Assembly: GCA_009780065.1 (NCBI GenBank)
Contig: WRAS01000002.1
Location: 73,916 to 137,915 of the forward strand
Length of the DNA: 64,000 bases
Direction of reading: 5' to 3'
From: Bacillota bacterium
Lineage (GTDB): Bacteria; Bacillota; Clostridia; Christensenellales; UBA1242
In this document: piece by piece, positions 24,050 to 56,156 of the stretch
Layout of the letters: the number at the start of each line of letters is the position of its first letter
How positions within the stretch are numbered: position 1 is the first letter of the stretch
Made by a program: the position numbers and the translations under genes
The notes under the pieces: model-generated
Told to the model about the DNA's origin: nothing
Seen by the model: the letters and a program-made list of their open reading frames with translations, nothing else
Databases searched by the model: none

Positions 24050-24171
24050 TAGTTCATCCCCCGACAGTATTATTATATACCATAATCAACCGTGCATCCA
24101 AATACTTATGCTCTCTGTCCAATTTTAAAATCATTATTTTGGTAATGTTTCCCATTGTTTTACGTTCATCC

Positions 24172-24200
24172 TTGACAAGAAAAATCGCATAATGTACAAT
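24172..24200 (+). promoter_or_regulatory. consensus sigma-70 promoter of the tRNA locus
   Basis: TTGACA (24172-24177), 17 nt spacer, TACAAT (24195-24200). It ends 12 nt before the tRNA 5' end. Confidence 0.6.
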
Positions 24201-24212
24201 ACTCCCAAGTGC

Positions 24213-24252
24213 GTGACCGTGGCGGAATGGCAGACGCGTAGCACTAAGGATG
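24213..24252 (+). tRNA. 5' half of a disrupted class II tRNA-Leu (anticodon AAG)
   Basis: Acceptor GTGACCG, Leu-type D arm GCG-GAATGGCAGA-CGC, anticodon stem TAGCA, loop CTAAGGA. The matching 3' half (TGCTA, variable arm, T arm, CGGTCAC-A-CCA) lies at 30200-30245. Confidence 0.7.
24241..24252 (+). repeat. attL core GCACTAAGGATG (12 bp direct repeat, also at 30190-30201)
   Basis: Identical 12-mers at both junctions. Sequence diverges immediately outside them. Confidence 0.65.
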
Positions 24253-24279
24253 TTACGCGTTTTCGTGGAAAGGAGGTAA

Positions 24280-24356
24280 GGATCTGTACCCCAATTGGCA
24301 GAGGGACACGACTAAGGATCGTGACAGTGGAGGTTCAAGTCCTCTCAGATCCACCA
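24280..24356 (+). tRNA. element-encoded 77 nt tRNA-like gene, anticodon AAG (Leu-type D arm and A73, but only a 5 nt variable loop)
   Basis: Acceptor GGATCTG/CAGATCC (7 bp perfect). D arm CCC-CAATTGGCAGA-GGG. Anticodon arm CACGA-CTAAGGA-TCGTG. T arm GGAGG-TTCAAGT-CCTCT. A73 plus an encoded CCA. Confidence 0.6.
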
Positions 24357-24400
24357 CAAATTGTGCTTTTGTTCAGTAAAATGCGCAATAAAACCACAAG

Positions 24401-24422
24401 ACCGCCCGCAAAGGCGGTTTTT
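24401..24422 (+). terminator. intrinsic terminator after the tRNA-like gene
   Basis: ACCGCC / GGCGGT stem with a CGCAAA loop and a T-run. Confidence 0.6.
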
Positions 24423-24499
24423 GTGTGCTTCGTTATTCAGTTGTCAATCTTACTTGTGAGTGTCGCCGTTTGGGCGATTTCACACATCTTTCACACATT

Positions 24500-25741
24500 C
24501 TAATTGCAAATGCGCAAGCGGCTCGGTGGGCTAGCAAAATCAAAGTGTCCATCAAGACTAGCCACCGCCGTTTGTTTGTCTTCATCGTCAACAGAGAGAT
24601 AGTATTTCATTGTCACAGTACAGTCGACATGCCCCAATAACTCTTGTATTGTCTTCATGTTTGCGCCTTGCTTCAAAAGATGCGATGCAAAACTGTGTCT
24701 GAATTTGTGCAAGTGTCCTTTGATTCCAAGACGACGACATAGGCGTGTGACCGTGTTCGACAATCTGTCGGGCTTTATCATCTTACCCATTTTGTCGACA
24801 AAGACATAGTCGCTATAATTGTGATTGTAAAATATTGCCTTGTTGTTTTCGGCAGTCAATTCTATCTGTCTAAATAGAATGTGTTGCGATTGCATGCTGA
24901 GTGGTATAGTTCTCTCGCTACTATCTGATTTCAGTTCTGTATATGCTTTCAAGCCTTCACCCGCAATTGGCAAAACTTTTTCTCTAACTCGTATAGTTCG
25001 GTTATCGAAATTTATCGCCGACCATTTCAACCCGACAATTTCAGAACGGCGCATGCCCGTCCACATTGCAAATTGAATTGGCAGGCAAGCCCCTTCATTT
25101 TCCAACGCTTCCCACAGTTGTCGCATTTCGTCTTTCGAGAAAAACTCTGCACGGCGCTGATTTACTTTCGGACTGTCGATGTTTTCAAAGGCATTGTGCG
25201 CCACAAACTTTTTGCGCTTTGCATATTTGAAAGCGGGTTTGTAGAAGCAAAGTATCTTCTTTATCGTGCAATCTGTAAACGGCTTGCCTTCACGTGTTTT
25301 CAATTTGCGTAAGTAGTCCACAAACGCTTCCGCATCAAATTCTGTAAAATCGGTTAGTTTCATGTCTTCACGTCCACGCATGCGCAAAAACTCTCTCATT
25401 TTATCGGGGTGGCTTGTCGTGTAGATGTAATAGACTAAGTCCGTCAATTTCTTCTCAGTCCTTCTGTGGTCGACATACTTTTGCAACAGTTGCATAACTG
25501 TCAAATTCGCATAGTCCACGTTCAAGCCGCGCCGTTTTGATAGTTCGGCTGAAAACTCGTCTATAAACGCTTTCTGCATGTCTTCCACACGTCGTTTGCC
25601 GCCACGATGATATTCGGCAAGGGTAAGTCCGGAGTTGCGCCACGCTTGTTTTCGCTTCACACCTTCGGCGTAGTCAATGACTATGCCCACGTAAACCTTG
25701 CTTCCAATCTTCTTCTCAATAATTCTGCTATTTAATTTCAT
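24500..25741 (-). CDS. tyrosine recombinase/integrase
   Basis: C-terminal catalytic region [37 protein letters not shown] plus an upstream [13 protein letters not shown] (Arg I) motif. Confidence 0.9.
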
Positions 25742-26073
25742 ACTAACCTCCTAATTTTAAGTTCTCGTGCTTTCAGTCCATAGTCCAATTCTCTCGTCAC
25801 GAATTGCGCCAAGTGAATTTTTGTGACCCTATGCTCTTTACCAATCTTAATTGTGGGTATGCGCCCAAGCAAGTCATACATTTTCGTGCGACCTAGACCC
25901 AAGATTGTCGCCGCTTGTGAAAGCGGTACCAAGTCTGGCAAGTCATTGAACAAGTCACCAGTCTCTATGTTGTTATAGCAACCCAGTTTGTAACCTGTGG
26001 CTATGCCCGACATAAAAAGCATTGTGCGTTCGTCTGTCTCACCAAAGAATTGATGTGTGATAATTTCGTTCAT
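25738..26073 (-). CDS. excisionase-like HTH DNA-binding protein
   Basis: [33 protein letters not shown] matches the excisionase/MerR-type HTH_17 pattern. AAGGAG RBS before the ATG at 26073. 4 nt overlap with the integrase start. Confidence 0.6.
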
Positions 26074-26270
26074 TTCGTCTCCTTTTATTTTGAATTTCAG
26101 ACAGTGCGGAAAGTATGGGTGCGTGTCCACGCACCCAAAACTTGTGTCGCCACGTCACACCGAAAGTGTGTCAGTCTGTTGTCGTATTATAATACCCCAG
26201 CAACGTCTTTTCTGCATTTCGGGGCAAGTTAGCCGTCCGACTAAACGGCAATTTTTGAAACTTTTTTGTT

Positions 26271-26663
26271 TTACTTTCGTGGCTTGATAACCGCTTGATA
26301 ATAGCAATTACCACGAATACCCCCGCTGAAAAAATGCTTCATTGAATAGTCATGTATCTTGCCATTCGGATGCGGTCTTAATTGCGCCTTCGCCAGAAAG
26401 AACTCACTCATGGCTTTATACTCGTCAAGACCCAATTCATACCTTTGCCCATTCCGCTTGTCGTTGCAAAATTTCATGTTTTCCATGAGGCTTTGCCAGT
26501 CTAGGCGCGTCCACTCACCATGTGGGTGGGGTTTACCTTTGTGTTTTGGGTATCGTTCGCAATAGTCCCAAATTATCGCCTTTGTCTCGGCAAATGTCAT
26601 GCAAGTGTTAGCATTATGATGTGCGACTGATATAATTTGCTCGCACGGATAAATATTTTTCAT
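26271..26663 (-). CDS. hypothetical protein (element cargo)
   Basis: 130-codon ORF with a GGAG RBS. No recognisable motif. Confidence 0.55.
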   Translation of the reverse strand: MKNIYPCEQIISVAHHNANTCMTFAETKAIIWDYCERYPKHKGKPHPHGEWTRLDWQSLMENMKFCNDKRNGQRYELGLDEYKAMSEFFLAKAQLRPHPNGKIHDYSMKHFFSGGIRGNCYYQAVIKPRK

Positions 26664-26691
26664 TGTTAAAATCTCCTTTATTATACTATAT

Positions 26692-26827
26692 AGTAACTAG
26701 TAACAGTATAAGCCATGTTACTAGTTACTACCAACCTGTAAGAAAGAAATTCATACTACAAGTAATTTATCTAGTACCTACATCTCTCTTAATTGTACAA
26801 GTTACTTACCCGTTACTCGTTACTATT
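26692..26827. repeat. GTTACT iteron cluster with a perfect 13 bp inverted repeat
   Basis: AGTAACTAGTAAC (26692-26704) and GTTACTAGTTACT (26717-26729) are exact reverse complements. Three further direct GTTACT copies lie at 26801-26827. Confidence 0.5.
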
Positions 26828-27011
26828 CACTGGCAGGACACTACTGGCCAAAGCCATGCCGCCGCCTACCATTGCATTTCGCCGTTTGCCTTGAAACATG
26901 CTCTGTGATGTCATAGCATGCGCACTACGTCGCCTTCCTCGACATTTTGCACATCGTTTCACAAGCATGCCCAAGACGGCGAAAATTGCATTTGCGTTCA
27001 CCCCAAAAGTG

Positions 27012-27275
27012 TTAGGGTGAGTCAGTGCATTTTTCGTAGATGTTGCCGCACTGGTCGCAATGTTGAAAACCGAACGGCTCAAAAAACTTGTCATCGTCTT
27101 CGTCGCCAATCTTCTTGTGCATTCCGTAAAGTCGTGACATGATGTGTGGCGTGATAGGCTTCTCGCCGTATTCCAATTTTTGATAATACGACTTACTCAC
27201 ACGCAAATCTTTTGCCATGCTTCGCATTGTCCCACCGTGACGGTTTGACCGAAACTCTCTCAAAGGCTCAATCAT
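27012..27275 (-). CDS. Cro/XRE-like small HTH protein
   Basis: MRSMAKDLRVSKSYYQKLEYGEKP HTH segment. Divergent from the cI-like gene. Confidence 0.65.
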   Translation of the reverse strand: MIEPLREFRSNRHGGTMRSMAKDLRVSKSYYQKLEYGEKPITPHIMSRLYGMHKKIGDEDDDKFFEPFGFQHCDQCGNIYEKCTDSP

Positions 27276-27552
27276 TTTCGCTTCCTCCTTTTAAGCGTCC
27301 ACGAGTTAGGGCGTGTTTGAAAATAGTGTTCTTCACACGCCGTTTGCTCGCTTTCGCAATTTCTTGACAATATCAATCTGAGTGGGCTATAATAGTGGCA
27401 CGATCAGCCGTTTCAACTGTTCGTTGCACGCCCTGTCGCAAGCGGGGCGTTTCCATTCTTCAACCTAATCAAATTGATATCAGACTAAATTATAATCGCT
27501 TTATCTGATGTTGTCAAGCACTTTTTCACACTTTCGGTGTCCACAATATCAC

Positions 27553-27581
27553 TTGCAATTTTCTATCACTGGTGATAATAT
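27553..27581 (+). promoter_or_regulatory. promoter with an overlapping palindromic operator for the cI-like gene
   Basis: TTGCAA (27553-27558), 17 nt spacer, extended -10 TGaTAATAT (27573-27581). Palindrome TATCAC-TG-GTGATA at 27564-27577. The ATG at 27589 follows 7 nt after the -10. Confidence 0.5.
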
Positions 27582-27588
27582 ATGACAT

Positions 27589-28074
27589 ATGACCTTTGCG
27601 GATATCTTTAAGGAATTGCGGAAGAAAAATAACATGTCTCAACAACAAGTTGCGGACAAGTTAGGGATAAAGCAACCCACAGTTGCATCGTGGGAAAAAG
27701 ATGGGGAACGCTTGCCAGAAAATAAAACATTGTGCGAAATTGCCAATTTGTTTGATGTGTCTCTTGATTATCTATGCGGACGTACAGGCGATACTAAAAA
27801 AGTCAAGAGTCTACTTGATGCAGAAGGCATAGACCCCAATGAGTATAATGAATACCTACGCATTATCAGACATGCCAAGGAAGACAATGCCAAGAAAATG
27901 AAAGTCTGGCGCTTTGTGAAAGAAATTGCCTTAGATGGTGACAATGCTACTGCTTTGTTGTTTTTCAAGAAAGTATATTCAAGTCCAGATGCGTTGGAAG
28001 TAATTGCGTGCAACCGTGAACTTCTTAACATAGTTGTAAAGTGCGCCAATGAAAAAGGTATTGAGATTGATTAA
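27589..28074 (+). CDS. XRE-family repressor (cI-like)
   Basis: MSQQQVADKLGIKQPTVASWEKDGERLP and LFDVSLDYLCGRTGD are typical HTH_3 repressor features. Confidence 0.8.
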   Translation: MTFADIFKELRKKNNMSQQQVADKLGIKQPTVASWEKDGERLPENKTLCEIANLFDVSLDYLCGRTGDTKKVKSLLDAEGIDPNEYNEYLRIIRHAKEDNAKKMKVWRFVKEIALDGDNATALLFFKKVYSSPDALEVIACNRELLNIVVKCANEKGIEID

Positions 28075-29492
28075 ACCAACTCGTCTAAGTCGCCGTTTTC
28101 AAGAAAATTCTTCATGAGTTCAAAGCCTAAATCGTTCACTCTTTCGCTATCATGTTTATTGCTCTTGCCAGAATTACACCTATCGCAAAGAGTTTGTAAA
28201 TTGTCACAGTCTGATGTACCACCTTTGGATACTGGGACAATATGGTCAACATGCAACTTGACTCCGTCGCTTGCGGTAGAGCCACATATTTTGCACTCGT
28301 GTCCATCACGCTTCAAAATATCATAGCGGACGGAGTTAGTCACTCTTGACCTTTCACGGTTAATTCTGTCTTGACGTTCTGACCTTTCCCTTACTTTCCT
28401 AGTTACTATCTTGTACCATGTTTCCAAGTCATCTAGTTTATAAATGTATTCTTTCTTATAACTATTTCTACCCGCTGGGCTTATATAACTAACTTTGCAA
28501 GTAATGTCTAAGTCAACACTTGGTTGGAGTTTTTTGTCTCTGTAAAGCATGTTCTCAATCTCTAAAAATATCTTTGGTTTCATTGTCTTGGAAAAACTTT
28601 GATGTTTCTCGTCATATGTTATTTTGCCCTTATCGTCTTTGTTGGTAACATCAGAGTAAGTAAAGAGATTTTCATATTCTTCGATGTATTTAGTGTTTAG
28701 AATAATATTATTTTTCATTAATCGCACCATCCCGCCGATTTTGGCAATGTTCAATTCTATGAACTCTTGCAATAAATCTAGCGTTGACGTTCTGTTGTAT
28801 TGTACGTAGGTGTCACAGTGTTTTGTAAGCGGATATGTTATTAAGGCTTCCCAAGATATTTTGTGGAATTTCTGCCGACTGTTTAATTCAGATAATTTTT
28901 TGCATAGAGTGCTATTATCCTTTACAAAATCAATATGCACAGACGCATAGTGACGTTTTGCGCTACTTTCGCTTACAGCATGCCCAATCATAATCAGCAC
29001 AGGCAAAACGGCGACTGTCGATAGGGTAATGCCTTGCCATATTGAATTACTATCTGCGCCAATGATAATAAATGTGGCTATGGGTGAATATGCAAACAAA
29101 AACGGAACAAAACAAATACCTACCAATTCGCCAATATCCAACGTTCTCAATTTCTGGTATGAGAAAATTGCCACCGTCAGTGCAAATGATATTAACATAT
29201 GTATAATCAAAAAAACCATCATGTCAACTTCGTCATAGCGAAAAAATGCAAATGCGCCCGCCGTACCAAAAACGAGTGCGACATACATGCACCACACACA
29301 GAGCCACTTTATTGATTTCGCCACGCCACCCCTTAACTGAATGTTTATGTCTCTACACACATAACAAGACAAAATCAGCCATAAGATTTTAGTTTGAAAA
29401 CAAGCATAAGTCAAGACATTGTCGGGCAACGTGTTGCCGTAAATGAATTGCCCGAAACTGTGATACTCTAAGTGTGAAAGAAAATGACCCAA
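28071..29492 (-). CDS. multi-pass membrane protein with a C-terminal HNH endonuclease domain (start uncertain; alternative ATG at 29288)
   Basis: HNH motif RDGHECKICGSTASDGVKLHVDHIVPVSKGGTSDCDNLQTLCDRCNSGKSNKH. About 4-5 N-terminal hydrophobic helices. Confidence 0.75.
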   Translation of the reverse strand: MGHFLSHLEYHSFGQFIYGNTLPDNVLTYACFQTKILWLILSCYVCRDINIQLRGGVAKSIKWLCVWCMYVALVFGTAGAFAFFRYDEVDMMVFLIIHMLISFALTVAIFSYQKLRTLDIGELVGICFVPFLFAYSPIATFIIIGADSNSIWQGITLSTVAVLPVLIMIGHAVSESSAKRHYASVHIDFVKDNSTLCKKLSELNSRQKFHKISWEALITYPLTKHCDTYVQYNRTSTLDLLQEFIELNIAKIGGMVRLMKNNIILNTKYIEEYENLFTYSDVTNKDDKGKITYDEKHQSFSKTMKPKIFLEIENMLYRDKKLQPSVDLDITCKVSYISPAGRNSYKKEYIYKLDDLETWYKIVTRKVRERSERQDRINRERSRVTNSVRYDILKRDGHECKICGSTASDGVKLHVDHIVPVSKGGTSDCDNLQTLCDRCNSGKSNKHDSERVNDLGFELMKNFLENGDLDELV

Positions 29493-29722
29493 GAGTACAA
29501 ATCAGCATCGGCAAGGCGATAAGTTTGAGAGTCCACGAATTGCTCGCCAAACACAATATGACGGCTTACAGACTAGAAATTGAAAGCGGAATAAACCATA
29601 GCACAATGACATTTATCTTGAAGGGCAATAACAAGTCGGCTTCACTCAAAACGGCGATAATGCTTGCTAAGGGCTTCAAGATGTCGCTAGTGGAATTTCT
29701 TGACGCCGCATTTGTCGTTTGA
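29474..29722 (+). CDS. XRE-family HTH protein
   Basis: MTAYRLEIESGINHSTMTFILKGNNKS HTH pattern. Probable GTG start. Confidence 0.6.
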   Translation: MKENDPRVQISIGKAISLRVHELLAKHNMTAYRLEIESGINHSTMTFILKGNNKSASLKTAIMLAKGFKMSLVEFLDAAFVV

Positions 29723-29740
29723 TAGATTGCTTGATATTGA

Positions 29741-29989
29741 CTAGCGGGTGAGACGACTTTTTGTCTCTAATTTTGGCATGACTTTTCTGTTAAAGTCACA
29801 TGGATATGGCATACTCGCATAATACTTACGTTCTACCACTTTGCAATACTCTAACTCGTAGTTGCCAATCGGAACACAAACTGTGTCGCCTATCTGCACA
29901 GATTCGTCTTCGCAATAGTAGTTCAGTTTGCGCTTGCCATATTGCACTTTGACGAAAAGATGTTGTTTCTCCATGCCACAGTATAGCAC
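29741..29989 (-). CDS. hypothetical small protein
   Basis: 82-codon ORF with no motif. The start may be the ATG at 29974. Confidence 0.4.
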   Translation of the reverse strand: MLYCGMEKQHLFVKVQYGKRKLNYYCEDESVQIGDTVCVPIGNYELEYCKVVERKYYASMPYPCDFNRKVMPKLETKSRLTR

Positions 29990-30189
29990 TTGCTTTCACA
30001 CAAACGGCGTGTGAAAGAACATCACATGTCCAAATGTGTCGCATGATACTTTTATGAGCCGAAATAGTGTTGCTAAGTATCATTTTTTCTGTTCACACAA
30101 ATTTCACACATAGCAACTGGACAAGCGCAAAAAAGTGTCGTATACTATCACATGTGACTGTGGAATAGTGCTAAATCTGATTGTTCATT

Positions 30190-30245
30190 GCACTAAGGAT
30201 GCTATAGGTTATCCTGTGGAGGTTCAAGTCCTCTCGGTCACACCA
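30190..30245 (+). tRNA. attR core plus the 3' half of the disrupted tRNA-Leu(AAG)
   Basis: GCACTAAGGATG core, then CTA, variable arm TAGGTTATCCTGT, T arm GGAGG-TTCAAGT-CCTCT, acceptor CGGTCAC, A73, CCA. The acceptor is complementary to 24213-24219. Confidence 0.7.
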
Positions 30246-44563: not shown

Positions 44564-45676
44564 TTAATTATTGCCGTCAAATAATTCAATATATTTTTGT
44601 TCGGCATCGTCTGTTAGGTGGGTATAAACCGCCTTTGTCATCCGTGAGCCTTTGGCGTGTCCGCACCATGACTGGGTTGTGAGTTCTTCGACTCCACGTT
44701 CGTGACATCTTGTTATAAACGTGTGCCTTAACTCGTGAATTGTTATGCGAGGAAGTCCATTATCTTTACAAAGTTTTTCAAGCCTTTTTGACAACATAGC
44801 GGAACGATATTTTTGATAGATTCGTTCGTGTGGATCTTTGTCCTTGTGTCGCAACAATAACTCTCTCGTCAACTTGAACATGGGCATTGTGCGTAGACTA
44901 TCGGCATTTTTGACTTGCAAATCATCTGGGTGGGTTTCGTCATAACTTTCATCAATTCGCAACGTGTTTTTTGTAAAGCACAAATCGTTGGGTCTTATGG
45001 CAAGCATTTCACCTTTTCGCAAACCTTGCAAACAACAAATCAATAGTGGCTCGTATTTGTCAAGGTTTCCCATGCAAGCGGATATAAATATCTTTTCATG
45101 GGCTTCGGTGAGTGCTTTTTTCTCATGCTTTGCAACTCGTTTAGGAATTTGGAAATTGCTTGTGGGATTTACTTCGATAAGTCGATTATTGAACGCAACC
45201 AAGAACATTTGTTGTGCAAGGTTGCAGACTGGTATTCTCATGCCCTGTGCGGTGTTCCCATCGTAGATAATTTTGGATAACATCAAACTTGTTATATCGT
45301 TGATAGATATATCGTGCAAAGAATGAAACGGCTTGAATGACTTTATGAAACTGTCTATTGTTGCTTGTCGCACCCTGCCAACCTTGTATGAGTTCAGCCA
45401 CTCGTCAAACCACTCTTTTAATGTGTATGGCTTTTTCGCTTTGCTCTCTGCTCGTTGCATTTGTGCGACTGGAACGTGGATATTCAATTTTTGCAAATAT
45501 CTTTCGGCACTTGCATTTTGCTTTTCCTGTTCCACTCGGTCAACGACTAACTTCAATTTATCGTAGCAATCTAATTTTGTCCTGCCGTAAACCGAAATCA
45601 CCTTTTCGCCAAACCTAACACGTGCAAACCAATTTCCACGAATGTGTTTTCTAATTGTCTTTCCTTGATATGTCAT
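44564..45676 (-). CDS. tyrosine recombinase/integrase
   Basis: Motifs GLRKGEMLAIRPNDL and ITIHELRHTFITRCHERGVEELTTQSWCGHAKGSRMTKAVYTH. Confidence 0.9.
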   Translation of the reverse strand: MTYQGKTIRKHIRGNWFARVRFGEKVISVYGRTKLDCYDKLKLVVDRVEQEKQNASAERYLQKLNIHVPVAQMQRAESKAKKPYTLKEWFDEWLNSYKVGRVRQATIDSFIKSFKPFHSLHDISINDITSLMLSKIIYDGNTAQGMRIPVCNLAQQMFLVAFNNRLIEVNPTSNFQIPKRVAKHEKKALTEAHEKIFISACMGNLDKYEPLLICCLQGLRKGEMLAIRPNDLCFTKNTLRIDESYDETHPDDLQVKNADSLRTMPMFKLTRELLLRHKDKDPHERIYQKYRSAMLSKRLEKLCKDNGLPRITIHELRHTFITRCHERGVEELTTQSWCGHAKGSRMTKAVYTHLTDDAEQKYIELFDGNN

Positions 45677-45841
45677 ATTTTCATTTCAATTTAAGACGCA
45701 GTTTTTGTTTCACACACCTCCTTTTTTTTGTGAGTTTCTCACTACAACAGTATACCATCTTTAGGCGTCGCAGGCAAGGGCAAAAATCGTTCGACAAATT
45801 ATTCACTTCCCAATTTCGCCAAAATACGCTACATTATTTAT

Positions 45842-47101
45842 GTGAGTGAAAATGACAAAGATGTAAACCCATACGGCAAAGGGAGCAGGGGCAAATTCAC
45901 TATTGCCAACCCTTTTATAACCGATGAGATGAAATTGATTATTGTGGACTTGGATAACTTGACTGACGAACAAAAAGCCATGCCACGACAAGCACATGAC
46001 TGGTCTTTTGCCAAACAGCCACACCTTGCACATTTCTTTGTTTTCCACTGGTGCGAATACACAAAGAACGCCGTGCCTAATGACGAGTCAACTGCATTTC
46101 AAACAATCGGTGAACGTGCATTTTTTGTTGATTACGAGTCCGCACAAAATTATTTCAAATACCTACATGAAAATCACTTTGTCGAGTATGTTTGCTTTCA
46201 ATATGAAAAGGGCGATAAAACTGGACTCCTGCACCTGCAAGGTTTCATGCGATATAAAAAGATTATGTTCCCAAACAAGGTGCGTGTAATTTTCCCAACC
46301 ATGTCATTAAAACAATGTGGTATGCAATCTAATCAAGAGTGCCGTGCCTATTGTTGCAAAGAGGAAACAAAGGTTGACGGCTTTGACTTTTTCGAGTGGG
46401 GCAATTTCACCAAGATAGGACAACGCAACGACCTTGTGCGACTTATCCAAGCCATTAAAGATGATATGCCATATGAACAACTGCTTGAAAATTTCCCATA
46501 TCAAATGATGAACATGGGTGACAAGGTTGAAAAAACTCGGCAAAATCTTATCCGTGAAAAATTCAAAAATGTTGAACGTGAAATACACGTCACATATATT
46601 TATGGTGTAGAGGGAACGGGAAAAACGACATTCCCATATCGTGTGTTGGGTTTACAATATCAAGATGTATTCAAAGTTTCCAACTATAAACATAGTGGGA
46701 AATATGATAATTACAAGTGCCAAGACGTTATCCTGTTTGACGAATTTCACGGACAAATTGATATAACCGAAATGAACGATATGCTTAATGGTCAGCCGTA
46801 TGACTTCCCATGCCGTTATAACGATAGGTCGGCTTGTTTTACCAAAGCAATTTTCACGTCAAACTATCCAATGGAAGAGGCTTATAAAAATGAAATCGAC
46901 AAAGGCAAAATGCGTTCTTTCAAGGGGTTTCAACGCAGGGTCACGGAAATTATTTATATGCCCGAACGTAATCACTATATATGGCAACTGGGTAGACCAA
47001 GTGACGAAATCATAGACAATTTGAAATCGCAAGGTGCTAAAATTAAATTGCCCCCACAAGAAATTACACAGGGCGAAATTGACATTGCGGAGGTGTTTTA
47101 A
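45842..47101 (+). CDS. replication initiator: HUH endonuclease plus SF3 helicase (CRESS-DNA-virus/pCRESS-plasmid-type Rep)
   Basis: Motif II GLLHLQGF, motif III ECRAYCCKE, Walker A YGVEGTGKTT, Walker B VILFDEF, motif C FTSN. Overall collinear with circovirus Rep. GTG start. Confidence 0.85.
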   Translation: MSENDKDVNPYGKGSRGKFTIANPFITDEMKLIIVDLDNLTDEQKAMPRQAHDWSFAKQPHLAHFFVFHWCEYTKNAVPNDESTAFQTIGERAFFVDYESAQNYFKYLHENHFVEYVCFQYEKGDKTGLLHLQGFMRYKKIMFPNKVRVIFPTMSLKQCGMQSNQECRAYCCKEETKVDGFDFFEWGNFTKIGQRNDLVRLIQAIKDDMPYEQLLENFPYQMMNMGDKVEKTRQNLIREKFKNVEREIHVTYIYGVEGTGKTTFPYRVLGLQYQDVFKVSNYKHSGKYDNYKCQDVILFDEFHGQIDITEMNDMLNGQPYDFPCRYNDRSACFTKAIFTSNYPMEEAYKNEIDKGKMRSFKGFQRRVTEIIYMPERNHYIWQLGRPSDEIIDNLKSQGAKIKLPPQEITQGEIDIAEVF

Positions 47102-47760
47102 TGGACAACATGAAATTGATAATTCTCAAAGACGATAGATTCAAAAAAGTGCTTGACGGCTCTATGTCCGTTTGGCTCACTCTAAACGATGACTTTGCAA
47201 AGTCAATAGAAATTGACGAGGTGTTGCGTGTTCTTAACGACAACACAAACGAAACTTGCTATATCCGTTGTGTTGGCTTTCACGTCTATTCGTCATTCGA
47301 GGAACTCTATAACAAGGTTGACAAAAACACTCTCGGTTATGACGGAACGGACAAGGAAAATATTGCTCTAATCAAAGACCAAATGTTTTGTCAATGTTCG
47401 CCCGAACAAGAAAAAAAATATGGTGTGCGTGGGATAATTTTTGAATACAATCCCGAATATAAAACCATAGCAGAAATGACAGAGGAAGAGGGGCAAGCCT
47501 TTCTTAAAAAAATATTCTCTACACTAAAAAAAGAACAAAACACATTATATCGTGCCATGCAAAAAGCAGACGAAACCGCACACGGACTCACGGAACTAGT
47601 CAAGGTAAGTCCACCATTTTATTTTGCAAGCACTGACGAGGCAAACAACGACAACCTAAAACATGAATTGAATTACACAATCGGCAAATTACAAGACCTA
47701 CTTGACACTATTCAAGACTGGGAAAACAAATTAAAATTCCCCACATCAAAAAAGTATTGA
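47101..47760 (+). CDS. ASCH-like domain protein with a helical C-terminal half
   Basis: The N-terminus IILKDDRFKKVLDGSMSVWLTLND...IRCVGFHVYSSFEELY resembles ASCH/PUA-like domains. Overlaps the Rep stop codon. Confidence 0.45.
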   Translation: MDNMKLIILKDDRFKKVLDGSMSVWLTLNDDFAKSIEIDEVLRVLNDNTNETCYIRCVGFHVYSSFEELYNKVDKNTLGYDGTDKENIALIKDQMFCQCSPEQEKKYGVRGIIFEYNPEYKTIAEMTEEEGQAFLKKIFSTLKKEQNTLYRAMQKADETAHGLTELVKVSPPFYFASTDEANNDNLKHELNYTIGKLQDLLDTIQDWENKLKFPTSKKY

Positions 47761-47773
47761 CATGGTGGTGTGC

Positions 47774-47911
47774 TTGCTTTGCGTTTCCCTCTCGCCGTAA
47801 AATAACCTGCACAACCGCAAAAACTTTGCAAGGGCGGAACGTGCATTTTACCCTTGCAAAGTTTTTGTGCGTTGTGCCACAAACAAAAGGCGAGAGGAAA
47901 CGACAAAGCAA
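47774..47911. repeat. ~140 nt compound imperfect hairpin (candidate origin or bidirectional terminator)
   Basis: Outer arms 47774-47796 and 47889-47911. Inner arms 47809-47834 and 47851-47877 (7 + 16 bp). 16 nt apical loop CGGAACGTGCATTTTA. Confidence 0.6.
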
Positions 47912-47976
47912 CACAGGCACAAAACACCGCATACCCACCCAAGCCAAAACCGTTTCCCTTGAGCCGAGAAAAAAAA

Positions 47977-49242
47977 TCACATTTCTTTTATTTCTTCTTT
48001 TGGGTAGGTGTTGCCACCATAACCGCCATAGCCTTTTATGTTCATACCCTTAAACAATTCGTCATCTGTTTCTTGATTGTTGCTTTTATCTAAAAATTGT
48101 TCCCCCATTATGACTTTGCCTGCCATGTCAATAATTGGTACTTGGTGCATTTCGCTAGCCTGTTGAACTAATTGCATTAACTCTGGGCTATGGTCAACAT
48201 CACTTACTTGTAATGCAATAACATTTTTTAGGGGCATGCCACTAGGTATAGCCACCCAATAGGGTTTATCTTTGGCAATTCCGTCTGCGTTTCCTGCTAT
48301 CCCTAATAGCCTTTGTGGTGTTTCTCCGTCTTGTTTTGGTGCTGACCAGTCATAAAGTTTTGATAAAAATTGCTTTTCATCTTGTGAGTATATGTCCATA
48401 TTGCCACTTTCTTTGTTTCGTGCATATCGCCACAAATCCATTTTGGCTAACTTTTCAATGGCTGGTGTTTGTGGGTCAATTATATATGTCATCTTTGGGT
48501 GTTTCTTTTTCTCACCGCCTGTGTGTAATTTAATTAGCACCTTGCCGTCAACTTCTTTTTCTTGTTCTTTTTGTTTTTCATGTTCTTCAAGGTCAAGTAT
48601 ATTTCCTTTGCCTTTATAGAACGAAGCACAAAAACGACATTCCCCATAACTTTCCATTTTCCCAAACCATTCGGAAGCGATAATACCCAAGTCATTTCGT
48701 GCTTCTAAACTTTCTTTGTTTGCTAGTGGTATGTTGTGAAGAAGTAAAGGTCTTTCCCCAAAATCTGCTTTTCCATTTTTTGCTTGTATGGGCTGTGGCT
48801 TTACTTGTTCATTTTTTGCATTTTCATACAAACTTTCAAGTTGTTCAAACATGGGTGCATACTCTTGGTGTATTTGATTTTTAACATTGTCCATATAGGT
48901 TTGGAATTTAGCACCAAATGTTTTTTCTGCAACTTCATAAAGTTTGTGCCATCTTTTTTCTTGTGGCAAGCCAACTATACTTCCGTCCTCGCCTCGATGA
49001 CTATCTAAGAATTGATTATATTCGGGATTATTATCTATAAAATCGTTAAACCCTTCATCTCTTTCGTTATTGTTGTTGCCAAAAAAAGAATATACTAAAT
49101 TCATCTTTGTTTTTGGGTCATTGAATATGTTGGATATACTACCTGTGAAAACATAGTTGTTTGTATCTATCCCTGCGTTCATCAAACTTCCACCTGTGTT
49201 TCCCAAGTTTGCACCTGTGGCAATTTTATATTGTTTTTGCAT
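47977..49242 (-). CDS. hypothetical 421 aa protein (element cargo, antisense to Rep)
   Basis: Long uninterrupted ORF with no motif recognised. Confidence 0.6.
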   Translation of the reverse strand: MQKQYKIATGANLGNTGGSLMNAGIDTNNYVFTGSISNIFNDPKTKMNLVYSFFGNNNNERDEGFNDFIDNNPEYNQFLDSHRGEDGSIVGLPQEKRWHKLYEVAEKTFGAKFQTYMDNVKNQIHQEYAPMFEQLESLYENAKNEQVKPQPIQAKNGKADFGERPLLLHNIPLANKESLEARNDLGIIASEWFGKMESYGECRFCASFYKGKGNILDLEEHEKQKEQEKEVDGKVLIKLHTGGEKKKHPKMTYIIDPQTPAIEKLAKMDLWRYARNKESGNMDIYSQDEKQFLSKLYDWSAPKQDGETPQRLLGIAGNADGIAKDKPYWVAIPSGMPLKNVIALQVSDVDHSPELMQLVQQASEMHQVPIIDMAGKVIMGEQFLDKSNNQETDDELFKGMNIKGYGGYGGNTYPKEEIKEM

Positions 49243-49341
49243 GAGCTTAGTATATCAAAAATATGAGGCTGTGTACATTGATATTGCGTGTGCAAAATCG
49301 AGTGTGTTGTCGTAAAAAATGGCAAGGTACAAAAACTGCTT

Positions 49342-49403
49342 GGCAGGGCGGGTTTTTCGGCGAGTGCTTGCACCGCCGAAAACCGCCCCAGTTTTGGTCT
49401 GCC
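49342..49403. repeat. second GC-rich hairpin of the Rep element
   Basis: GGGCGGGTTTTTCGGCG (49346-49362) pairs with CGCCGAAAACCGCCCC (49374-49389), extended by GGCAG/CTGCC. It shares the motif AAAAACT..TGC.AGGGCGG with the 47.8 kb hairpin. Confidence 0.5.
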
Positions 49404-49588
49404 ATTTTAGGCAACACCGATTGCAACCAATACAAACAAAAACGAACCTTGTCGGCTCGTTCCTGCAAACTGCGTTCTTAAATTTCAAACTCCTTTTGCT
49501 TAAAATTTTTTTGCGTTCCCATTGTGTGTGAAACTGTGAGTGAACTCGTGAGTGTTTCGCCACAAATTACCCAATTTATCCGTATTTC

Positions 49589-50053
49589 CTACCTTTTGAT
49601 TGCGGTTGGTAAAGAGTTGTGCTTTTCTTTCTTTTTCTTGTTAGATCTGTAATAAAAGGGAAAGTCGAATGGAAACACATTTACTAAACTCTTCTCAGCT
49701 GGGAATATTATCATACTGTCGCTTAACCTAATCTCACCATCAAACTTTTCCGACACTATAAAATTTAGTGGGATTAAAAGCATGATTGGTTCTTGTGCCT
49801 CATCAAACTTTTCTTTTACAGCTTTCATAAATTCAGCAAAAATCTGTCCTTCAAATTCCCCAGACTTTGTCAACGCAATCAACATATCCTGAAATCTCCC
49901 ATCCAAGTAATAATTAGACATCATTTCAGCGTTTCTATAAATTTCTCTGACTACATCAACATGCTCACCCATAACATCACAATCATAGACAACCCTCTGG
50001 TTATTTCGTGCTGCTCGTAGAAATCTTTGAAATTTCATCTCACACAAACTCAT
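49589..50053 (-). CDS. hypothetical protein (third gene of the unknown trio)
   Basis: 154-codon ORF starting 10 nt after the stop of the preceding gene. Confidence 0.55.
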   Translation of the reverse strand: MSLCEMKFQRFLRAARNNQRVVYDCDVMGEHVDVVREIYRNAEMMSNYYLDGRFQDMLIALTKSGEFEGQIFAEFMKAVKEKFDEAQEPIMLLIPLNFIVSEKFDGEIRLSDSMIIFPAEKSLVNVFPFDFPFYYRSNKKKKEKHNSLPTAIKR

Positions 50054-50063
50054 TCATCCCCCT

Positions 50064-50849
50064 TTAGTAAAAACTTTGCCTTGTAAGAGCCCTAAAAAAA
50101 CTACCATCTATTTCACTCAATTTGTCAAGGATGTCTTCTTGCCTTAACTCGGAAACAAATTCTCCGATTATTTTAGTTTTGCCAGTTTGCGTCAGAAGTT
50201 TAACATGTCTATAGAAACCAAAAAGTGATACATGAGAAAAATCGCAACCAGAATCGAAATGGAAATTGACGTAAGGGAACATCCCTGGAATCCAAATATC
50301 TGTTAAATCACAAGAGTTAAAACTCTTGGAACGAGTCAATCTTGGCAAAGTCTTGTATGGATTGTCTGAGCCAAAATACTTCGCATAAATTGCAAATAGT
50401 TTTTCAAGTTCATTGTAAGTTAGACCAAAACAAGCACGTGTGAGCACCTCACATTCTTTTCCAGTATCATCAACGACTTCATAATACACATTTGTCGCGG
50501 TTGGGAATCTAACCCTAAACTTGTCTAAATATTTGAATTTCTCAGATTCGTTATAACTGTCGCCAACAAAATTGTCTAAGACTACACAGCCATCCCTTAT
50601 CCTGGCGAAGCCTTTAATCTTTGCCTTAATCGCCGAGGGTTTCATGTTTTCGAAATAATATGGCCATACGCCAAGCGGCATAGCATCCCTTTCTTTCAAG
50701 ATTGTACCACAAAAGAAATATGCCTCACCTCTTTCCGAAAGATATATTGCAGTGTCGATTATCCTACTTGGAATAACAATGTCCTTGGCAACTACTGATT
50801 TGATCTCGACTTCGCTAAAAAGTTTTTTAAGTTTTTCCCACCTTTTCAT
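50064..50849 (-). CDS. hypothetical protein (second gene of the unknown trio)
   Basis: 261-codon ORF with a 4 nt overlap with the upstream gene. Confidence 0.6.
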   Translation of the reverse strand: MKRWEKLKKLFSEVEIKSVVAKDIVIPSRIIDTAIYLSERGEAYFFCGTILKERDAMPLGVWPYYFENMKPSAIKAKIKGFARIRDGCVVLDNFVGDSYNESEKFKYLDKFRVRFPTATNVYYEVVDDTGKECEVLTRACFGLTYNELEKLFAIYAKYFGSDNPYKTLPRLTRSKSFNSCDLTDIWIPGMFPYVNFHFDSGCDFSHVSLFGFYRHVKLLTQTGKTKIIGEFVSELRQEDILDKLSEIDGSFFRALTRQSFY

Positions 50850-51370
50850 TTCAAACTTCCCCTCCTTACTGAAACCGAGTATCGCACTGGCTTGCCATCC
50901 ATGCTGTGCCCACCACCGTAACTAGACTTCGCCATATCCCATCCTTTTTGTTGGTTTAGATCTCTGGCGATTTTTTTGATATTATTAATATCCAATTTAC
51001 AACCACAGTTAAAATATAAATCCACGCTTACCCATGCGGATTGCCCATCGTCGATTGAACCAAAATTCCAAGAAATGTCATGTATGTGGTCGTCCTCTCT
51101 GGGGATATCAAAAGCATCTGCGAACGCATTCAGGTCATCAATTAAAAACAAGTCACTCCTATATTGCCATGGCCACACAGCATAAATTTTGCTTTTATCT
51201 GAAGTTGCATTAGAATGCGCAGTTTCCATTGACTGCTTATCCAGTTGTTTCACATTGCCAAGAGAATCAACTTCAAAATAACACACTGTTGATGAGGTGT
51301 ATGGAAATGTTTCGCTGTTTTTCGCGCTTCTCATTAAATTAATTCTAACACATTCCAACCATGGATACAA
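50846..51370 (-). CDS. hypothetical protein (first gene of the unknown trio; start uncertain, TTG at 51370 or ATG at 51334)
   Basis: 174-codon ORF with no motif. Confidence 0.5.
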   Translation of the reverse strand: MYPWLECVRINLMRSAKNSETFPYTSSTVCYFEVDSLGNVKQLDKQSMETAHSNATSDKSKIYAVWPWQYRSDLFLIDDLNAFADAFDIPREDDHIHDISWNFGSIDDGQSAWVSVDLYFNCGCKLDINNIKKIARDLNQQKGWDMAKSSYGGGHSMDGKPVRYSVSVRRGSLK

Positions 51371-51450
51371 TATTTATCCCACGGACAGGAATTGAACACC
51401 GCCACCGCAAAAAATTTTCTTTCATTTTTTGGCACTTTTTCTTCCATATT

Positions 51451-52375
51451 CTAACTTTCCAATTTTCGGCGCATTTTCAGCAATCCTAACGACAATGCAG
51501 TAATTGAATCATTTTTCTCCAACCTCAAGCGCGAGGAATTGAACTCTAACAATTTCGAATTTCTCGATGACATAAAATTTGCGTCGACGATTATATTAAA
51601 CACTACAATAGTTACAAAGCACATCGCACCCTCAAAAACAAAACTTCCAACCAGTTCTATGCCGAACATCTGGATGGGAGTTGCTAACGGACAGTCCTTT
51701 AAGATATGGTATAAGACTTATTACCACGTCAAACAAAATGTTGCCGCAGTTCTCAGCCGTTACTATCAAGTACTCTTGGTCAAAAATGATTGTCTTCGGC
51801 ACGCTTCCGTAAAACTTGAATGACCTATCCATTGCTTCCACAAACGCTTTTGTTGCAAACGGTTCGTGTCTAACTTCGAAGTACTTTTGCCTACTGAACA
51901 TCAACACGATCGCATAAAAGTAAACTTTCACTTTCTCGCCAAACATGTCACGCAATGTTATCTCACCAAAGTCTACCTGAGCCCACTCTCCTGGTTTGGT
52001 GTCGCCCACCGCCTCAAACTCGCGCTTACGCTGTTCGAGCGCCAACCCAGCATGTTCCTCCCGCAACTTGTTCATGTATCTATAAAACGCGCTAACACTT
52101 GGCTTAAAACTTTCATCTTGTGCCCTGATTTTGTCAAGTAAGATACTATTCCTTGTCCTCGGGTTTTTCTCCAATTCATCAAGCAGGAACTTCCGCCACC
52201 GCTCGATTTCGTCATTTCTTCTGCCCGAATCTGCATCGCGGAATTCATCCTCAGTGTAGTCCCAATATTTCCTAACACTCCACTGTTTGAGCCCACTCGC
52301 CTTAACTGCTTGCTGCCTACTCAGTCCCTCGTCTTTCAATCTCTGTATCAAAATGTAATCTTTAAATTTTATCAT
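51451..52375 (-). pseudogene. decayed DDE (IS21/rve-like) transposase
   Basis: HTH QRLKDEGLSRQQAVKASGL. DDE-core segment GEWAQVDFGEITL...YFYAIVLMFSRQKYF...TIIFDQE. The reading frame then breaks (51632-51669) and only a short out-of-frame ORF continues. Confidence 0.55.
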
Positions 52376-52508
52376 TTTTTGTTTCTCCTTTTTCAATGTC
52401 GAAACAAAAATCAAAAAATCATTCTGCAGCGCTTTTATCTTTCTCGTTCCACCTCCTTCTAAAAACGGGAGCACTCGCCCCCGCATAAAGTTTAACATTA
52501 ATTTGCAA

Positions 52509-53012
52509 TCATTGAAAAGCTGTATCGGGATAATCTTGTCCCACTTGTGACGGTGTAAATTGCTTTACAACTCCATCGTCGCTCACCGAAAAAATGTGAA
52601 TGCATAATGTCATGGCGATTTGCCGTGGGATTCGACGCAACGCAACTTTCGCCGCAATCCATGGTAATCCCAATCCGTACTTATACGCATGATTTGTCGT
52701 CCCTTTGTTCGCACCACTTTGAATAGTTCGCGGTGTGTTCATACGAGTGACCAACTGACCAAGAGCATGAATCCATCCCTCTTTGTTTGACGATCGCGCT
52801 GCCGATGGCGCTTCTGACTTTCCTTTGCATTCAATTATAAACTTTTCACTCTTTCTATTCCCGCCAATCAGAATTAAATCCGCTCCACGTCCACGTAGCC
52901 CTGCTTCTCTTGCCAGATCTTCATGCCAATTGCCGCGCTCTTTTGCGATAAGAAAATCACGCACGCGTTTTACAACTTCAGTTTCCGTTAATCTCAAGTG
53001 TTCAAATTCCAT
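52509..53012 (-). CDS. PD-(D/E)xK-type nuclease-like protein
   Basis: GADLILIGGNRKSEKFIIECKGK gives a D...E-x-K arrangement on a beta-strand pattern. It starts 18 nt downstream of the CFRNGP-family gene. Confidence 0.5.
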   Translation of the reverse strand: MEFEHLRLTETEVVKRVRDFLIAKERGNWHEDLAREAGLRGRGADLILIGGNRKSEKFIIECKGKSEAPSAARSSNKEGWIHALGQLVTRMNTPRTIQSGANKGTTNHAYKYGLGLPWIAAKVALRRIPRQIAMTLCIHIFSVSDDGVVKQFTPSQVGQDYPDTAFQ

Positions 53013-53030
53013 GAGTGATTATAGCATGCA

Positions 53031-53465
53031 TTACTGTACTTTCTCTTCAAATTCATCAGAGTTCATACTGTTTATAAGTTTGCAAACTTGAGCATTTGTC
53101 ATTTGCGCAAATTCGCCAGCATCAAACTCAGGCTTGTCCCAATCCGTGCCAGCCATCATAATCCCAGCTTGAACTATCGACCTAAGCCTATCAGTGTCAC
53201 CATCTTCTATTAGTTTGAAAAAACTATAAATCCTGTTCACGCAAAATTTATTCAGCTCCTCCATTCTCGCTTCGGTAAGCCTCTGCCCTTTGGCATGAAT
53301 GTCCTCGATTGGACCGTTTCTGAAACAAAAATGTGCCAAGCCAAAGGCTACATTTTCCAATCCGAACTCTTTGAATATTGTTGAGTTTTTAACCGCTGCG
53401 GAAATCTCTACTTTGTATTCATTATTAAGCCTCTCCATTACTTTTGCAAAAAGGTCCTCTCGCAT
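53031..53465 (-). CDS. small all-alpha protein, CFRNGPxEDxH family (paralog of 41579-41965)
   Basis: See the alignment given for 41579-41965. By eye, roughly 40-45 percent identity over ~80 aa. Confidence 0.6.
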   Translation of the reverse strand: MREDLFAKVMERLNNEYKVEISAAVKNSTIFKEFGLENVAFGLAHFCFRNGPIEDIHAKGQRLTEARMEELNKFCVNRIYSFFKLIEDGDTDRLRSIVQAGIMMAGTDWDKPEFDAGEFAQMTNAQVCKLINSMNSDEFEEKVQ

Positions 53466-53669
53466 TTAACTTGTTAATTCCAATCACAAAATTCTCCTTG
53501 CAATAAGGTTAACCTCACTCACAAGAACATCTTTGCCAAACCTTGCGGTTATTTGTCTTCTTTTGTTGAATTAAAAATTAATTTAGCGCAAAAAGCTAAA
53601 AAAGCGTAATGCAACTACAACAATGTTAGGATGCTATTTTTAATAAAGTAAAGCAGTTACTTGTTACTT

Positions 53670-55136: not shown

Positions 55137-56156
55137 TTATAACCCCGCATACGCCTTAAGTTTCTTTATATCAGTCCTTTTAATTAAAATTTGGTTTATT
55201 ACTATTTTCTTCACTATTTCTTTCACTGCGCCATCTTCGCCGCTAATTGAATCAAATGCGTCGTCATACTTTTCGTAGCTATTAGTAACAAAAGTTTTAA
55301 TCTGCTGGTTTGCAGCTAGTTGATGCTTACTTATATATTCGTCATAATCATTTATAACTCTGGTCACTAATTGAAAGTCGAGTGATGCAAAGTCAATAAG
55401 GCTTCTAAACTTTGACATAGCTGCCTCGATTATCCCTTCATCCTTTTCGTCTCTTAACCATTGTGGAGCATCTCCACCACAATACAAGACCACTATTGGC
55501 CATAGAAATGCCTCCTTGGTTACAGTCGCAATTCTTTTAGATGCGTTTATTCTCAACATATTTTGCCAAACACTCATCACTGTCGGCGTTAGTCCGCTAT
55601 CGCTTTTCCCAATTGCTGCAAACAACTCGTTTATGATTACTTTTATTTCTTTATACCTCTCTGCGTCTTCCTGACCTTCGAAGGGTATGACTAAGATATA
55701 AAAGTCATCATAAGCAAAATTGGTTATGTCTTGATCGTTGACCGCATTCCTGACAACCGCTTGTTCGACTGGTGTTAATTCTGAAAATGGTTTCGATGTT
55801 AATCCATTTATTGAGTTTTCCATTGGGTTTGTTATCTTAAATGGAGATTTTGAATTTGTTATGTAAGTTAGCTTGGCGGTGGCTGAATCGTTCGTTTTGG
55901 CTGCGTTCAAAGTATTAACAGCGTCTTTTAATTTTTGGATTACATTCCTTGTATCTGTGCTTGTCTCAACCGCTTTTGCTTGAGCGTAAATTTTCTTCTT
56001 ATTTGTCAATCCAATTTCGATGTCTTCATGTGCTGATTCATTCTTTACATACGATGATTCTTTCAGATTTTTGACAAACAAGAAAATAGCAGCATTAGCT
56101 TGAAAATCTCTGCCGAATTCTCCAACCGTATCTTGACTGCTCTTTTTTTGTTTCAA
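55137..56156 (-). CDS. Cap4/DUF4297-like nuclease-domain protein (LmuA-like effector)
   Basis: N-terminus GEFGRDFQANAAIFLF...ESAHEDIEIGL...KIYAQAKA fits the G.xGfxYQ...E.xEDi...QxK pattern of the Cap4 dsDNA nuclease domain. TTG start overlaps the Type ISP stop; its own stop abuts the ATPase ATG. Confidence 0.55.
   Translation of the reverse strand: MKQKKSSQDTVGEFGRDFQANAAIFLFVKNLKESSYVKNESAHEDIEIGLTNKKKIYAQAKAVETSTDTRNVIQKLKDAVNTLNAAKTNDSATAKLTYITNSKSPFKITNPMENSINGLTSKPFSELTPVEQAVVRNAVNDQDITNFAYDDFYILVIPFEGQEDAERYKEIKVIINELFAAIGKSDSGLTPTVMSVWQNMLRINASKRIATVTKEAFLWPIVVLYCGGDAPQWLRDEKDEGIIEAAMSKFRSLIDFASLDFQLVTRVINDYDEYISKHQLAANQQIKTFVTNSYEKYDDAFDSISGEDGAVKEIVKKIVINQILIKRTDIKKLKAYAGL

Follow-up and report, generated by a model that had tools for sequence, protein, structure and literature searches.

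Here we describe an integrative element of 5,949 bp (positions 24253-30201) in a 64,000-nucleotide stretch of DNA from a Bacillota bacterium (contig WRAS01000002.1 of assembly GCA_009780065.1), to which we refer as the window. It interrupts the anticodon loop of a class II gene for a leucine transfer RNA with the anticodon AAG, tRNA-Leu(AAG), and it carries a complete tRNA-Leu gene of a different structural class just behind one of its junctions. A first-pass annotation, made from the letters alone, had drawn attention to this arrangement; recomputed on the window, the observation is confirmed overall and its sequence statements hold with minor corrections. The features of the locus are collected in Table 1.

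A host tRNA-Leu gene cut in its anticodon loop

The two halves of the host gene lie 5.9 kb apart. The orphan 5' half ends in one copy of a 12-bp core, GCACTAAGGATG, and a second copy precedes the displaced 3' half; the window has exactly two copies of the core (24241 and 30190), where shuffled sequences let us expect 0.02. Joined in silico, 24213-24252 and 30202-30245 yield an 84-nt class II tRNA-Leu(aag) in ARAGORN, and the chromosomal attachment site (attB) thus overlaps the host tRNA gene. This call on the excised junction, which the first-pass annotation had proposed as a check, agrees with its reading of 24213-24252 as a Leu-type 5' half and of 30200-30245 as the matching 3' half (core and 3' half together are read here at 30190-30245), and the core that it saw at both junctions is borne out by the two exact copies. 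The junction sequences GCGTAGCACTAAGGATGCTATAGG and TTCATTGCACTAAGGATGTTACGCG are diagnostic for attB and for the attachment site of the element (attP), respectively.

The core is short and stops before the 3' end of the tRNA, and its flanks diverge at once on both sides. At the left junction (attL) it is directly followed by TTACGCGTTTTCG..., which cannot complete a cloverleaf, as had been noted: no tRNA is called across attL by ARAGORN or by Rfam. Canonical restoring elements bring, in their attP, the part of the tRNA that runs from the crossover to its 3' end, and an intact gene results at attL; here, neither is the case. A tRNA intron was considered and rejected, since the insert, at 5.9 kb, includes arm sites as well as genes for an integrase and an Xis-like protein. 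Three further assemblies from three samples match the arrangement over 4.6-21 kb with 0 mismatches, so it is not an assembly artefact, an alternative that the first-pass annotation had still entertained.

The host gene carries A34 in its anticodon, a rarity among bacteria that is known from Lactobacillales. A34 in tRNA-Leu is rare and has been documented in Bacillota, and TadA converts it to I34 (PMC13249217). Among the leucine codons in the host genes of the window, CTT accounts for 24% and CTC for 3%.

A complete type I tRNA-Leu behind the junction

The tRNA gene of the element starts after a spacer of 27 nt (24253-24279), not of 28 nt as first given, at the position that had been proposed. 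ARAGORN calls it as a tRNA-Leu(aag) of 77 nt with the variable loop ACAGU, Rfam scores it as a tRNA at 52.7 bits (gathering threshold 29), and the minimum-energy prediction folds it as a cloverleaf, so that all three agree with the earlier description of a complete cloverleaf; none of its pairs is mismatched. Its anticodon loop is an exact copy of that of the host tRNA, and over 20 nt its T arm is identical to that of the host gene (24327-24346 and 30216-30235), both as had been claimed. Drawing the boundaries of the element at this 20-nt repeat was rejected, because GGATCTG would then be joined to CGGTCAC, a dead acceptor stem.

With its cloverleaf, a variable loop within the range of 4-5 nt, a Leu anticodon and the discriminator A, the gene belongs to the type I tRNA-Leu, and it also bears the signature of this family (U8 A9, a 3-bp D stem, C13 A14 A15, GGCAGAG and U48). 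A covariance model, R1, built from an alignment of 43 genomic type I sequences (98.5% of cells paired and compensatory changes in 16 of 20 pairs, which supports the cloverleaf), covers it over all 74 positions without gaps and scores it at 77.2 bits. The specificity of the model is modest, with class II tRNA-Leu at 48-52 bits and generic tRNAs anywhere from 32 to 55 bits, and the meaningful part of the score is the margin from there up to 77. At 77 against at most 55 bits, the tRNA is a member of a documented and widespread family, and the label 'structurally unconventional', under which it was first described, is an overstatement.

According to degenerate pattern scans, at least 120 GTDB genomes (L019-L138) and at least 120 viral contigs of IMG/VR (L146-L265) contain type I tRNA-Leu genes. 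The GTDB matches listed come mostly from Actinomycetota, but also from Planctomycetota, Acidobacteriota, Chloroflexota and one Christensenellaceae metagenome-assembled genome (MAG); among the viral matches listed, three have the anticodon AAG and some are part of phage tRNA arrays. The exact tRNA of the element had no match among the viral contigs. The type I matches listed are 73-78 nt long, with the variable loop xCAGT or xAAGT and mostly the anticodon UAA. Nearly all bacterial tRNA-Leu have been described as type II (PMC6614811); with at least 120 loci per scan, type I tRNA-Leu is far more widespread than the literature suggests. None of the listed type I genes (120 GTDB and 120 viral loci) lies beside an orphan tRNA half, and the split layout is therefore tied to the integrase clade described below rather than to type I tRNAs in general.

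Transcription signals and attachment-site architecture

The host tRNA promoter, which stands as first described, is the sole promoter-like site in 24050-24520, and none lies between it and the tRNA of the element. Lacking a promoter-like site of its own and lying 27 nt from the crossover, this tRNA would have the host promoter as its only candidate in the integrated state. The spacers of homologous elements measure 28 nt (L002) and 37 nt (L001). Behind the tRNA, the stem at 24401-24418 is called by a terminator scan on the minus strand only, where the integrase gene (int) would end; on the plus strand, for which a terminator at 24401-24422 had been annotated, the T-run was read by eye. Hairpins with T-runs are found at the equivalent place in L001, L002 and L007.

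The inverted repeat at attL comprises 10 bp around the anticodon loop, and the predicted fold of the precursor turns it into a stable hairpin of 11-12 bp. It probably represents the integrase core-binding sites B and C', and a (C/A)(G/C)(T)GCG motif directly after the core is kept in relatives. Further out, a repeat of the arm type, TTCACACAnnTTTCACACAT, matches only twice in the window (24479 and 30092; chance expectation 0.03), both times perfectly, and its first copy lies between the terminator and int. Reading these repeats as arm-type integrase sites would place the tRNA within attP, with the core on one side and the P' arm on the other. Tandems of TTTCAC(A/G)C precede the int stop codon in L001, L002, L006 and L007. 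Another motif, CGCCGTTTG / CAAACGGCG, occurs at 24464, 24566 and 27338 (plus strand) and, inverted, at 29996-30015, that is, near both ends and upstream of the divergent helix-turn-helix (HTH) genes; the Xis-like protein or a regulator may bind there.

The right end of the element holds a promoter-like site and a pseudo 5' half (30118-30189), which had been overlooked. A promoter-like site in an analogous position, TTGCAA-17-CATAAT, is present in the P arm of L002 and L014.

The same layout in six integrase lineages

The integrase has few relatives: among 5.8 billion clusters, only four share 44-53% identity with it. Neither a single-sequence search nor a profile of five sequences matched an integrase in genomes; the profile retrieved four loci in JGI metagenomes and a distant one in IMG/VR, of which only L014 was informative. 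The arrangement recurs. In L001, an orphan 5' half of a tRNA-Leu(CAA) is followed by a spacer of 37 nt and a complete class II tRNA-Leu(CAA), which differs from the orphan half by a compensatory change in the D stem. In L002, the orphan 5' half of a tRNA-Leu(UAA) is followed, after 28 nt, by a complete type I tRNA-Leu(UAA) of 76 nt. The layout is also found at three loci with more distant integrases (24-28% identity), L008 (CAG), L266 (CAA) and L267 (UAA), where the spacers measure about 125-150 nt and may hold promoters of their own; in L267, a host Val-Cys-Leu tRNA operon ends with the orphan half. Altogether, six lineages, that of the window and five others whose integrases are 24-53% identical to its integrase, combine an orphan 5' half, a spacer, a complete tRNA-Leu and an integrase. 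All of them target tRNA-Leu, and in all six the anticodon of the element tRNA is that of the cut gene.

Several observations concern individual lineages. The integrases of L008 (9271-9520), L266 (4271-4547) and L267 (4247-4758), where the split tRNA-Leu and the complete tRNA are found, are Int-Tn-like, and these loci variously hold HTH_17 Xis-like and sigma-70 region 4 genes, with a faint TnpV match in L267. The order of int and the Xis-like gene seen in the window is also found in L001, L006, L008, L266 and L267. The 5' half at attL of L002 (GCCCGGG) finds no pairing partner in the 3' half at attR of the same locus (acceptor CACAAGC); it does pair with the 3' half of L014 (CCCGGGC), and the P arm of L014 is identical to that of L002 (positions L002:1-110 on the minus strand, L002:6760-6820 and L014:720-830). 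This mismatch suggests either that several type I tRNA-Leu genes were entered one after another or that elements have recombined with each other.

Elements of the L002/L014 type target a type I tRNA-Leu(UAA), and this has a bearing on whether the host could use such a tRNA. The GyrB of the host is 85-86% identical to MAG proteins and places it among uncultured Bacillota near Christensenellaceae. In the Christensenellaceae MAG, the type I tRNA-Leu gene is native and lies among housekeeping genes; because of this gene and of the type I targets of L002 and L014, the host clade probably charges type I tRNA-Leu. For the leucyl-tRNA synthetase (LeuRS) of Escherichia coli, A73, U8, A14, A15-U48, G18G19 and A20a have been described as determinants, the long arm being dispensable (PMC9976931). 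The element tRNA has A73, U8, A14, A15 with U48, G18G19 and A20a. As it keeps this bacterial identity set and the exact anticodon loop of the host tRNA, we expect it to be leucylated and to read the codons of the gene that it replaces. A precedent comes from the type I tRNA-Leu(CAA) of Streptomyces coelicolor, which is charged by its own LeuRS, but not by that of E. coli (Fan et al., 2019; PMC6614811).

Other genes of the element and a neighbouring region

The integrase reading frame lies 143 nt from the element tRNA; it is intact, and its catalytic domain is fully matched. No matches to capsid, lysis or replication genes were found in the 5.9-kb element with Pfam and PHROG, and it does not qualify as a temperate phage. 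Because structural, lysis and replication gene matches are absent, the term 'lysogeny' is not applicable to it; the underlying logic of integration is. Between the recombination genes and the right end lie cargo and regulation genes, for which PADLOC returned generic HNH and HTH matches only, the protein at 28071-29492 being weakly restriction endonuclease- or PtuB-like. The N-terminal half of this protein is hydrophobic and apparently membrane-spanning. Its gene could serve abortive infection or defence.

Elsewhere in the window, 44564-63620 looks like a second mobile or defence region, which adjoins a transfer-messenger RNA gene (63260-63620, minus strand). It includes a tyrosine recombinase (44564-45676), a protein with Viral_Rep and superfamily-3 helicase domains (45842-47101), a weakly rve-like reading frame (51632-52498) and a Type ISP restriction-modification enzyme of 1,602 aa (56153-60961).

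Table 1. Features of the element and its junctions, by position in the window
Feature	Position	Strand	Remarks
Host tRNA promoter-like site TTGACA-17-TACAAT	24172-24200	+	11/12 positions; 12 nt ahead of the 5' half
Host class II tRNA-Leu(AAG), orphan 5' half	24213-24252	+	Leu-type; contains the attL core copy (24241-24252)
attL inverted repeat ACGCGTAGCA / TGTTACGCGT	24234-24263	+	Around the 7-nt loop CTAAGGA, followed by TTTT
Element spacer, core to tRNA	24253-24279	+	27 nt; no promoter-like site
Complete type I tRNA-Leu(AAG)	24280-24356	+	5-nt variable loop; encoded CCA; anticodon 24314-24316
Hairpin and T-run after the tRNA	24401-24424		Read as bidirectional terminator, also facing the integrase stop
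P' arm-type repeat TTCACACATCTTTCACACAT	24479-24498	+	Putative integrase arm-binding site
Tyrosine integrase, 413 aa	24500-25741	-	Pfam Phage_integrase 1.2e-32; PHROG integrase
Xis-like HTH_17 protein	25738-26130	-	Overlaps the int start; Pfam HTH_17 1.2e-05, just under the curated cut-off
Cargo and regulation genes	26271-29989		130-aa protein, three HTH regulators, 473-aa HNH protein, 82-aa reading frame
HTH regulators	27012-27275; 27589-28074; 29474-29722	-; +; +	
473-aa protein	28071-29492	-	Hydrophobic N-terminal region; C-terminal HNH nuclease domain
P arm-type repeat TTCACACAAATTTCACACAT	30092-30111	+	Putative arm site, left of the attR core
Element promoter-like site TGGACA-17-TATACT	30118-30146	+	10/12 positions; faces the core
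Element pseudo 5' half GTGACTGTGG...	30154-30189	+	9 of its first 10 nt agree with the host 5' half
attR core (30190-30201) and displaced host 3' half	30190-30245	+	Long variable arm, T arm, CGGTCAC-A-CCA

How the cut gene may be replaced

We consider it likely that the window holds a small integrative element, not a phage, that uses tRNA-dependent integration and whose type I tRNA takes the place of the host tRNA-Leu it cuts. The complete tRNA is taken to be there as a replacement mainly because its anticodon matches that of the cut gene in all six lineages. That the element splits a tRNA-Leu gene and supplies a tRNA with the same anticodon was already the core of the first-pass interpretation; it is upheld by the anatomy of the locus, by the five further lineages and by precedent (PMC10865867).

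As the anatomy of the junctions shows, the integrase recombines the 12-bp core of attP with the anticodon loop of the chromosomal class II tRNA-Leu(AAG). Beyond the core, the element brings no 3' half but what is probably its own core-binding sequence, so that integration would leave two dead halves of the host gene. The type I tRNA-Leu(AAG), situated in attP between the core and the P' arm, would then come to lie 27 nt behind the orphan half, where the host tRNA promoter would read it as part of a precursor with the orphan half as a leader hairpin. RNase P and 3' processing would release the tRNA, with the encoded CCA and the downstream terminator completing the process. In the excised circle, the same tRNA could be read from the P-arm promoter TGGACA-17-TATACT, and precise excision would restore the host gene.

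Several points weigh against this interpretation. Exact scans for the 5' half and for the repaired junction yielded no match to an empty site among the GTDB genomes, and a search via the flanking leucine-rich repeat and glyoxalase proteins returned only occupied or truncated contigs. No circular attP junction was found either, which, with no empty site, leaves current mobility unsupported. Contig breaks in the Logan assemblies are not where an attB/attL branch would place them, and we therefore draw no inference from them. Moreover, we infer both the expression of the element tRNA from the host promoter and its leucylation, and with the tRNA set of the host read within the 64-kb window, the need for compensation is presumed. 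The leader hairpin (24234-24260) and the TTTT behind it could partly terminate transcripts from the host promoter. Lastly, some bacterial LeuRS, among them those of E. coli and S. purpurogeneiscleroticus, cannot charge type I tRNA-Leu (PMC6614811), and a tRNA-like hybrid at the right junction (attR), discussed below, scores above the Rfam gathering threshold.

One could also regard the tRNA as ordinary cargo, which supplies codons or counters defences that target tRNAs, in a host that has other readers of CUU and CUC. Type I tRNA-Leu, including the AAG isoacceptor, is indeed common in viral contigs and phage tRNA arrays, and the tRNA repertoire of the host was seen within the window only. Against this, the tRNA shares the anticodon of the disrupted gene in six of six lineages and always lies directly behind the junction, and in the close subfamily it lacks a promoter of its own. 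We find the cargo explanation unlikely.

Some elements regenerate their target from the 5' side, supplying a promoter and the 5' part of the tRNA. Regeneration of this kind at attR, where the promoter and 5' half of the element would combine with the host 3' half into a working class II tRNA-Leu(AAG) and make the type I tRNA an accessory, is the main rival explanation. The respective features are in part present: a promoter-like TGGACA-17-TATACT ends 7 nt upstream of a hybrid (30154-30242) that reaches 37.2 bits in a local Rfam search (gathering threshold 29), with an acceptor stem of 7/7 pairs, a D stem of 4 bp, 4/5 pairs in the anticodon stem and an intact AAG loop, and ARAGORN, too, calls a gene there. 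The D loop, however, is aberrant, with 16 nt and no G18G19, which is needed for recognition by LeuRS and for the contact between D and T loops (PMC9976931). The minimum-energy fold of the hybrid is not a cloverleaf, ARAGORN fits it solely as a 92-nt 'tRNA-Met', and the whole-window Rfam search at the gathering threshold filtered it out. Furthermore, the equivalent P-arm segment of L002 and L014 lacks a D arm, and its anticodon stem is broken, whereas the complete tRNA is kept in all six lineages. In view of its D loop, its fold and these degenerate equivalents, the hybrid is probably non-functional, and we regard regeneration at attR as quite improbable. The earlier statement that the tRNA is not regenerated accordingly stands for attL and needs amendment for attR, where a weak tRNA-like hybrid with a promoter does form. 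The right end may instead be the relic of a captured tRNA locus.

Finally, a decayed remnant or an assembly chimera, with a fixed split, a dead integrase and no current function, would account for the missing empty site and circular junction, but is hardly credible given identical sequences in four assemblies from at least three samples, an intact 413-aa integrase with a fully matched catalytic domain, perfect core copies and arm repeats and a tRNA free of mismatched pairs.

Implications of tRNA-dependent integration

If the element replaces the tRNA gene that it cuts, tRNA-dependent integration reaches beyond actinophages, into small non-phage elements of uncultured Clostridia-like bacteria. 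Until now, its demonstration was limited to actinophages, with one Lactobacillus prophage as a proposed further case. A whole integrase clade would practise it specifically at tRNA-Leu genes, and in a compact version in which the replacement tRNA is part of attP, so that its control would pass from the element to the host promoter upon integration. An essential host tRNA would then be exchangeable for one of another structural class, which bears on the co-evolution of LeuRS and tRNA-Leu. There are practical consequences as well: tools that map islands by a regenerated tRNA and a displaced 3' fragment will put such elements in the wrong place or fail to find them, and tRNA annotators will report a normal-looking tRNA-Leu and conceal the dead host gene.

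More speculatively, such elements might act as vectors of tRNA gene replacement, silencing a host tRNA-Leu at each integration and substituting a tRNA that can be of the other class, with the P-arm promoter and the pseudo half as relics of a captured locus. We put this forward with considerable doubt. Were it true, the element tRNA would stay behind as the only functional copy after the decay of the element, which would explain both why type I tRNA-Leu is distributed so patchily among bacterial phyla and why an element of the L002/L014 type now targets a chromosomal type I tRNA-Leu.

Comparison with known systems

Among the canonical tRNA-restoring elements, some, for example P22 and HP1, cross over in the anticodon loop, and Williams reportedly distinguished, in 2002, sublocation classes of integration within tRNA genes. 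The element in the window resembles these restorers in its crossover in the 7-nt anticodon loop, with the stem as flanking inverted repeat, and in the location of int beside the tRNA-proximal junction. Unlike theirs, its attP has no contiguous 3' half, and its attL is not a tRNA.

With the type I tRNA-Leu of S. coelicolor, the element tRNA shares the variable loop of 4-5 nt, the Leu anticodon and the Leu-type D arm. The former is a chromosomal CAA isoacceptor, whereas the latter reads AAG, is borne by a mobile element and would replace a type II gene, its charging being a prediction.

Prophage Lj965 of Lactobacillus johnsonii has been cited as a case in which the target tRNA is not rebuilt (PMC10865867). 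As here, it is a Firmicutes element that reportedly disrupts a tRNA and has a cognate tRNA on board. However, it is a 40-kb phage with four tRNA genes in the middle of its genome, about 12 kb from int, instead of one at the junction, and we therefore rejected it as a structural precedent.

The closest parallel is the tRNA-dependent lysogeny of actinophages such as Fionnbharth, LeBron and Gaia, in which a tyrosine integrase uses a core of 8-17 bp in a host tRNA without reconstructing it, and a phage tRNA of the same isotype complements the loss, as proven genetically in Mycobacterium smegmatis (Guerrero-Bustamante and Hatfull, 2024; PMC10865867). The element shares with these phages the tyrosine integrase, an attB in a host tRNA, a core of similar length (12 bp) and a carried tRNA with the same anticodon. 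Gaia comes closest, since it also targets a tRNA-Leu (CAA in its case) and has its tRNA adjoining int. By contrast, the element in the window is a 6-kb non-phage element of a Clostridia-like host, its integrase is unrelated at the family level, and its replacement tRNA is of another structural class than the host tRNA. This tRNA lies inside attP, 27 nt from the crossover, and lacks a promoter-like site, whereas the tRNA of Fionnbharth is distant and has a demonstrated promoter (PMC10865867), and that of Gaia has a promoter-like sequence, read by eye, directly upstream.

The mechanism is hence already known from actinophages, and what we describe extends it to a new host group, to a non-phage element and to a more compact form. 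New are the presence of such a non-phage element in an uncultured Christensenellaceae-like host, the swap of a class II for a class I tRNA and a promoterless tRNA in attP, for which the host probably provides the promoter.

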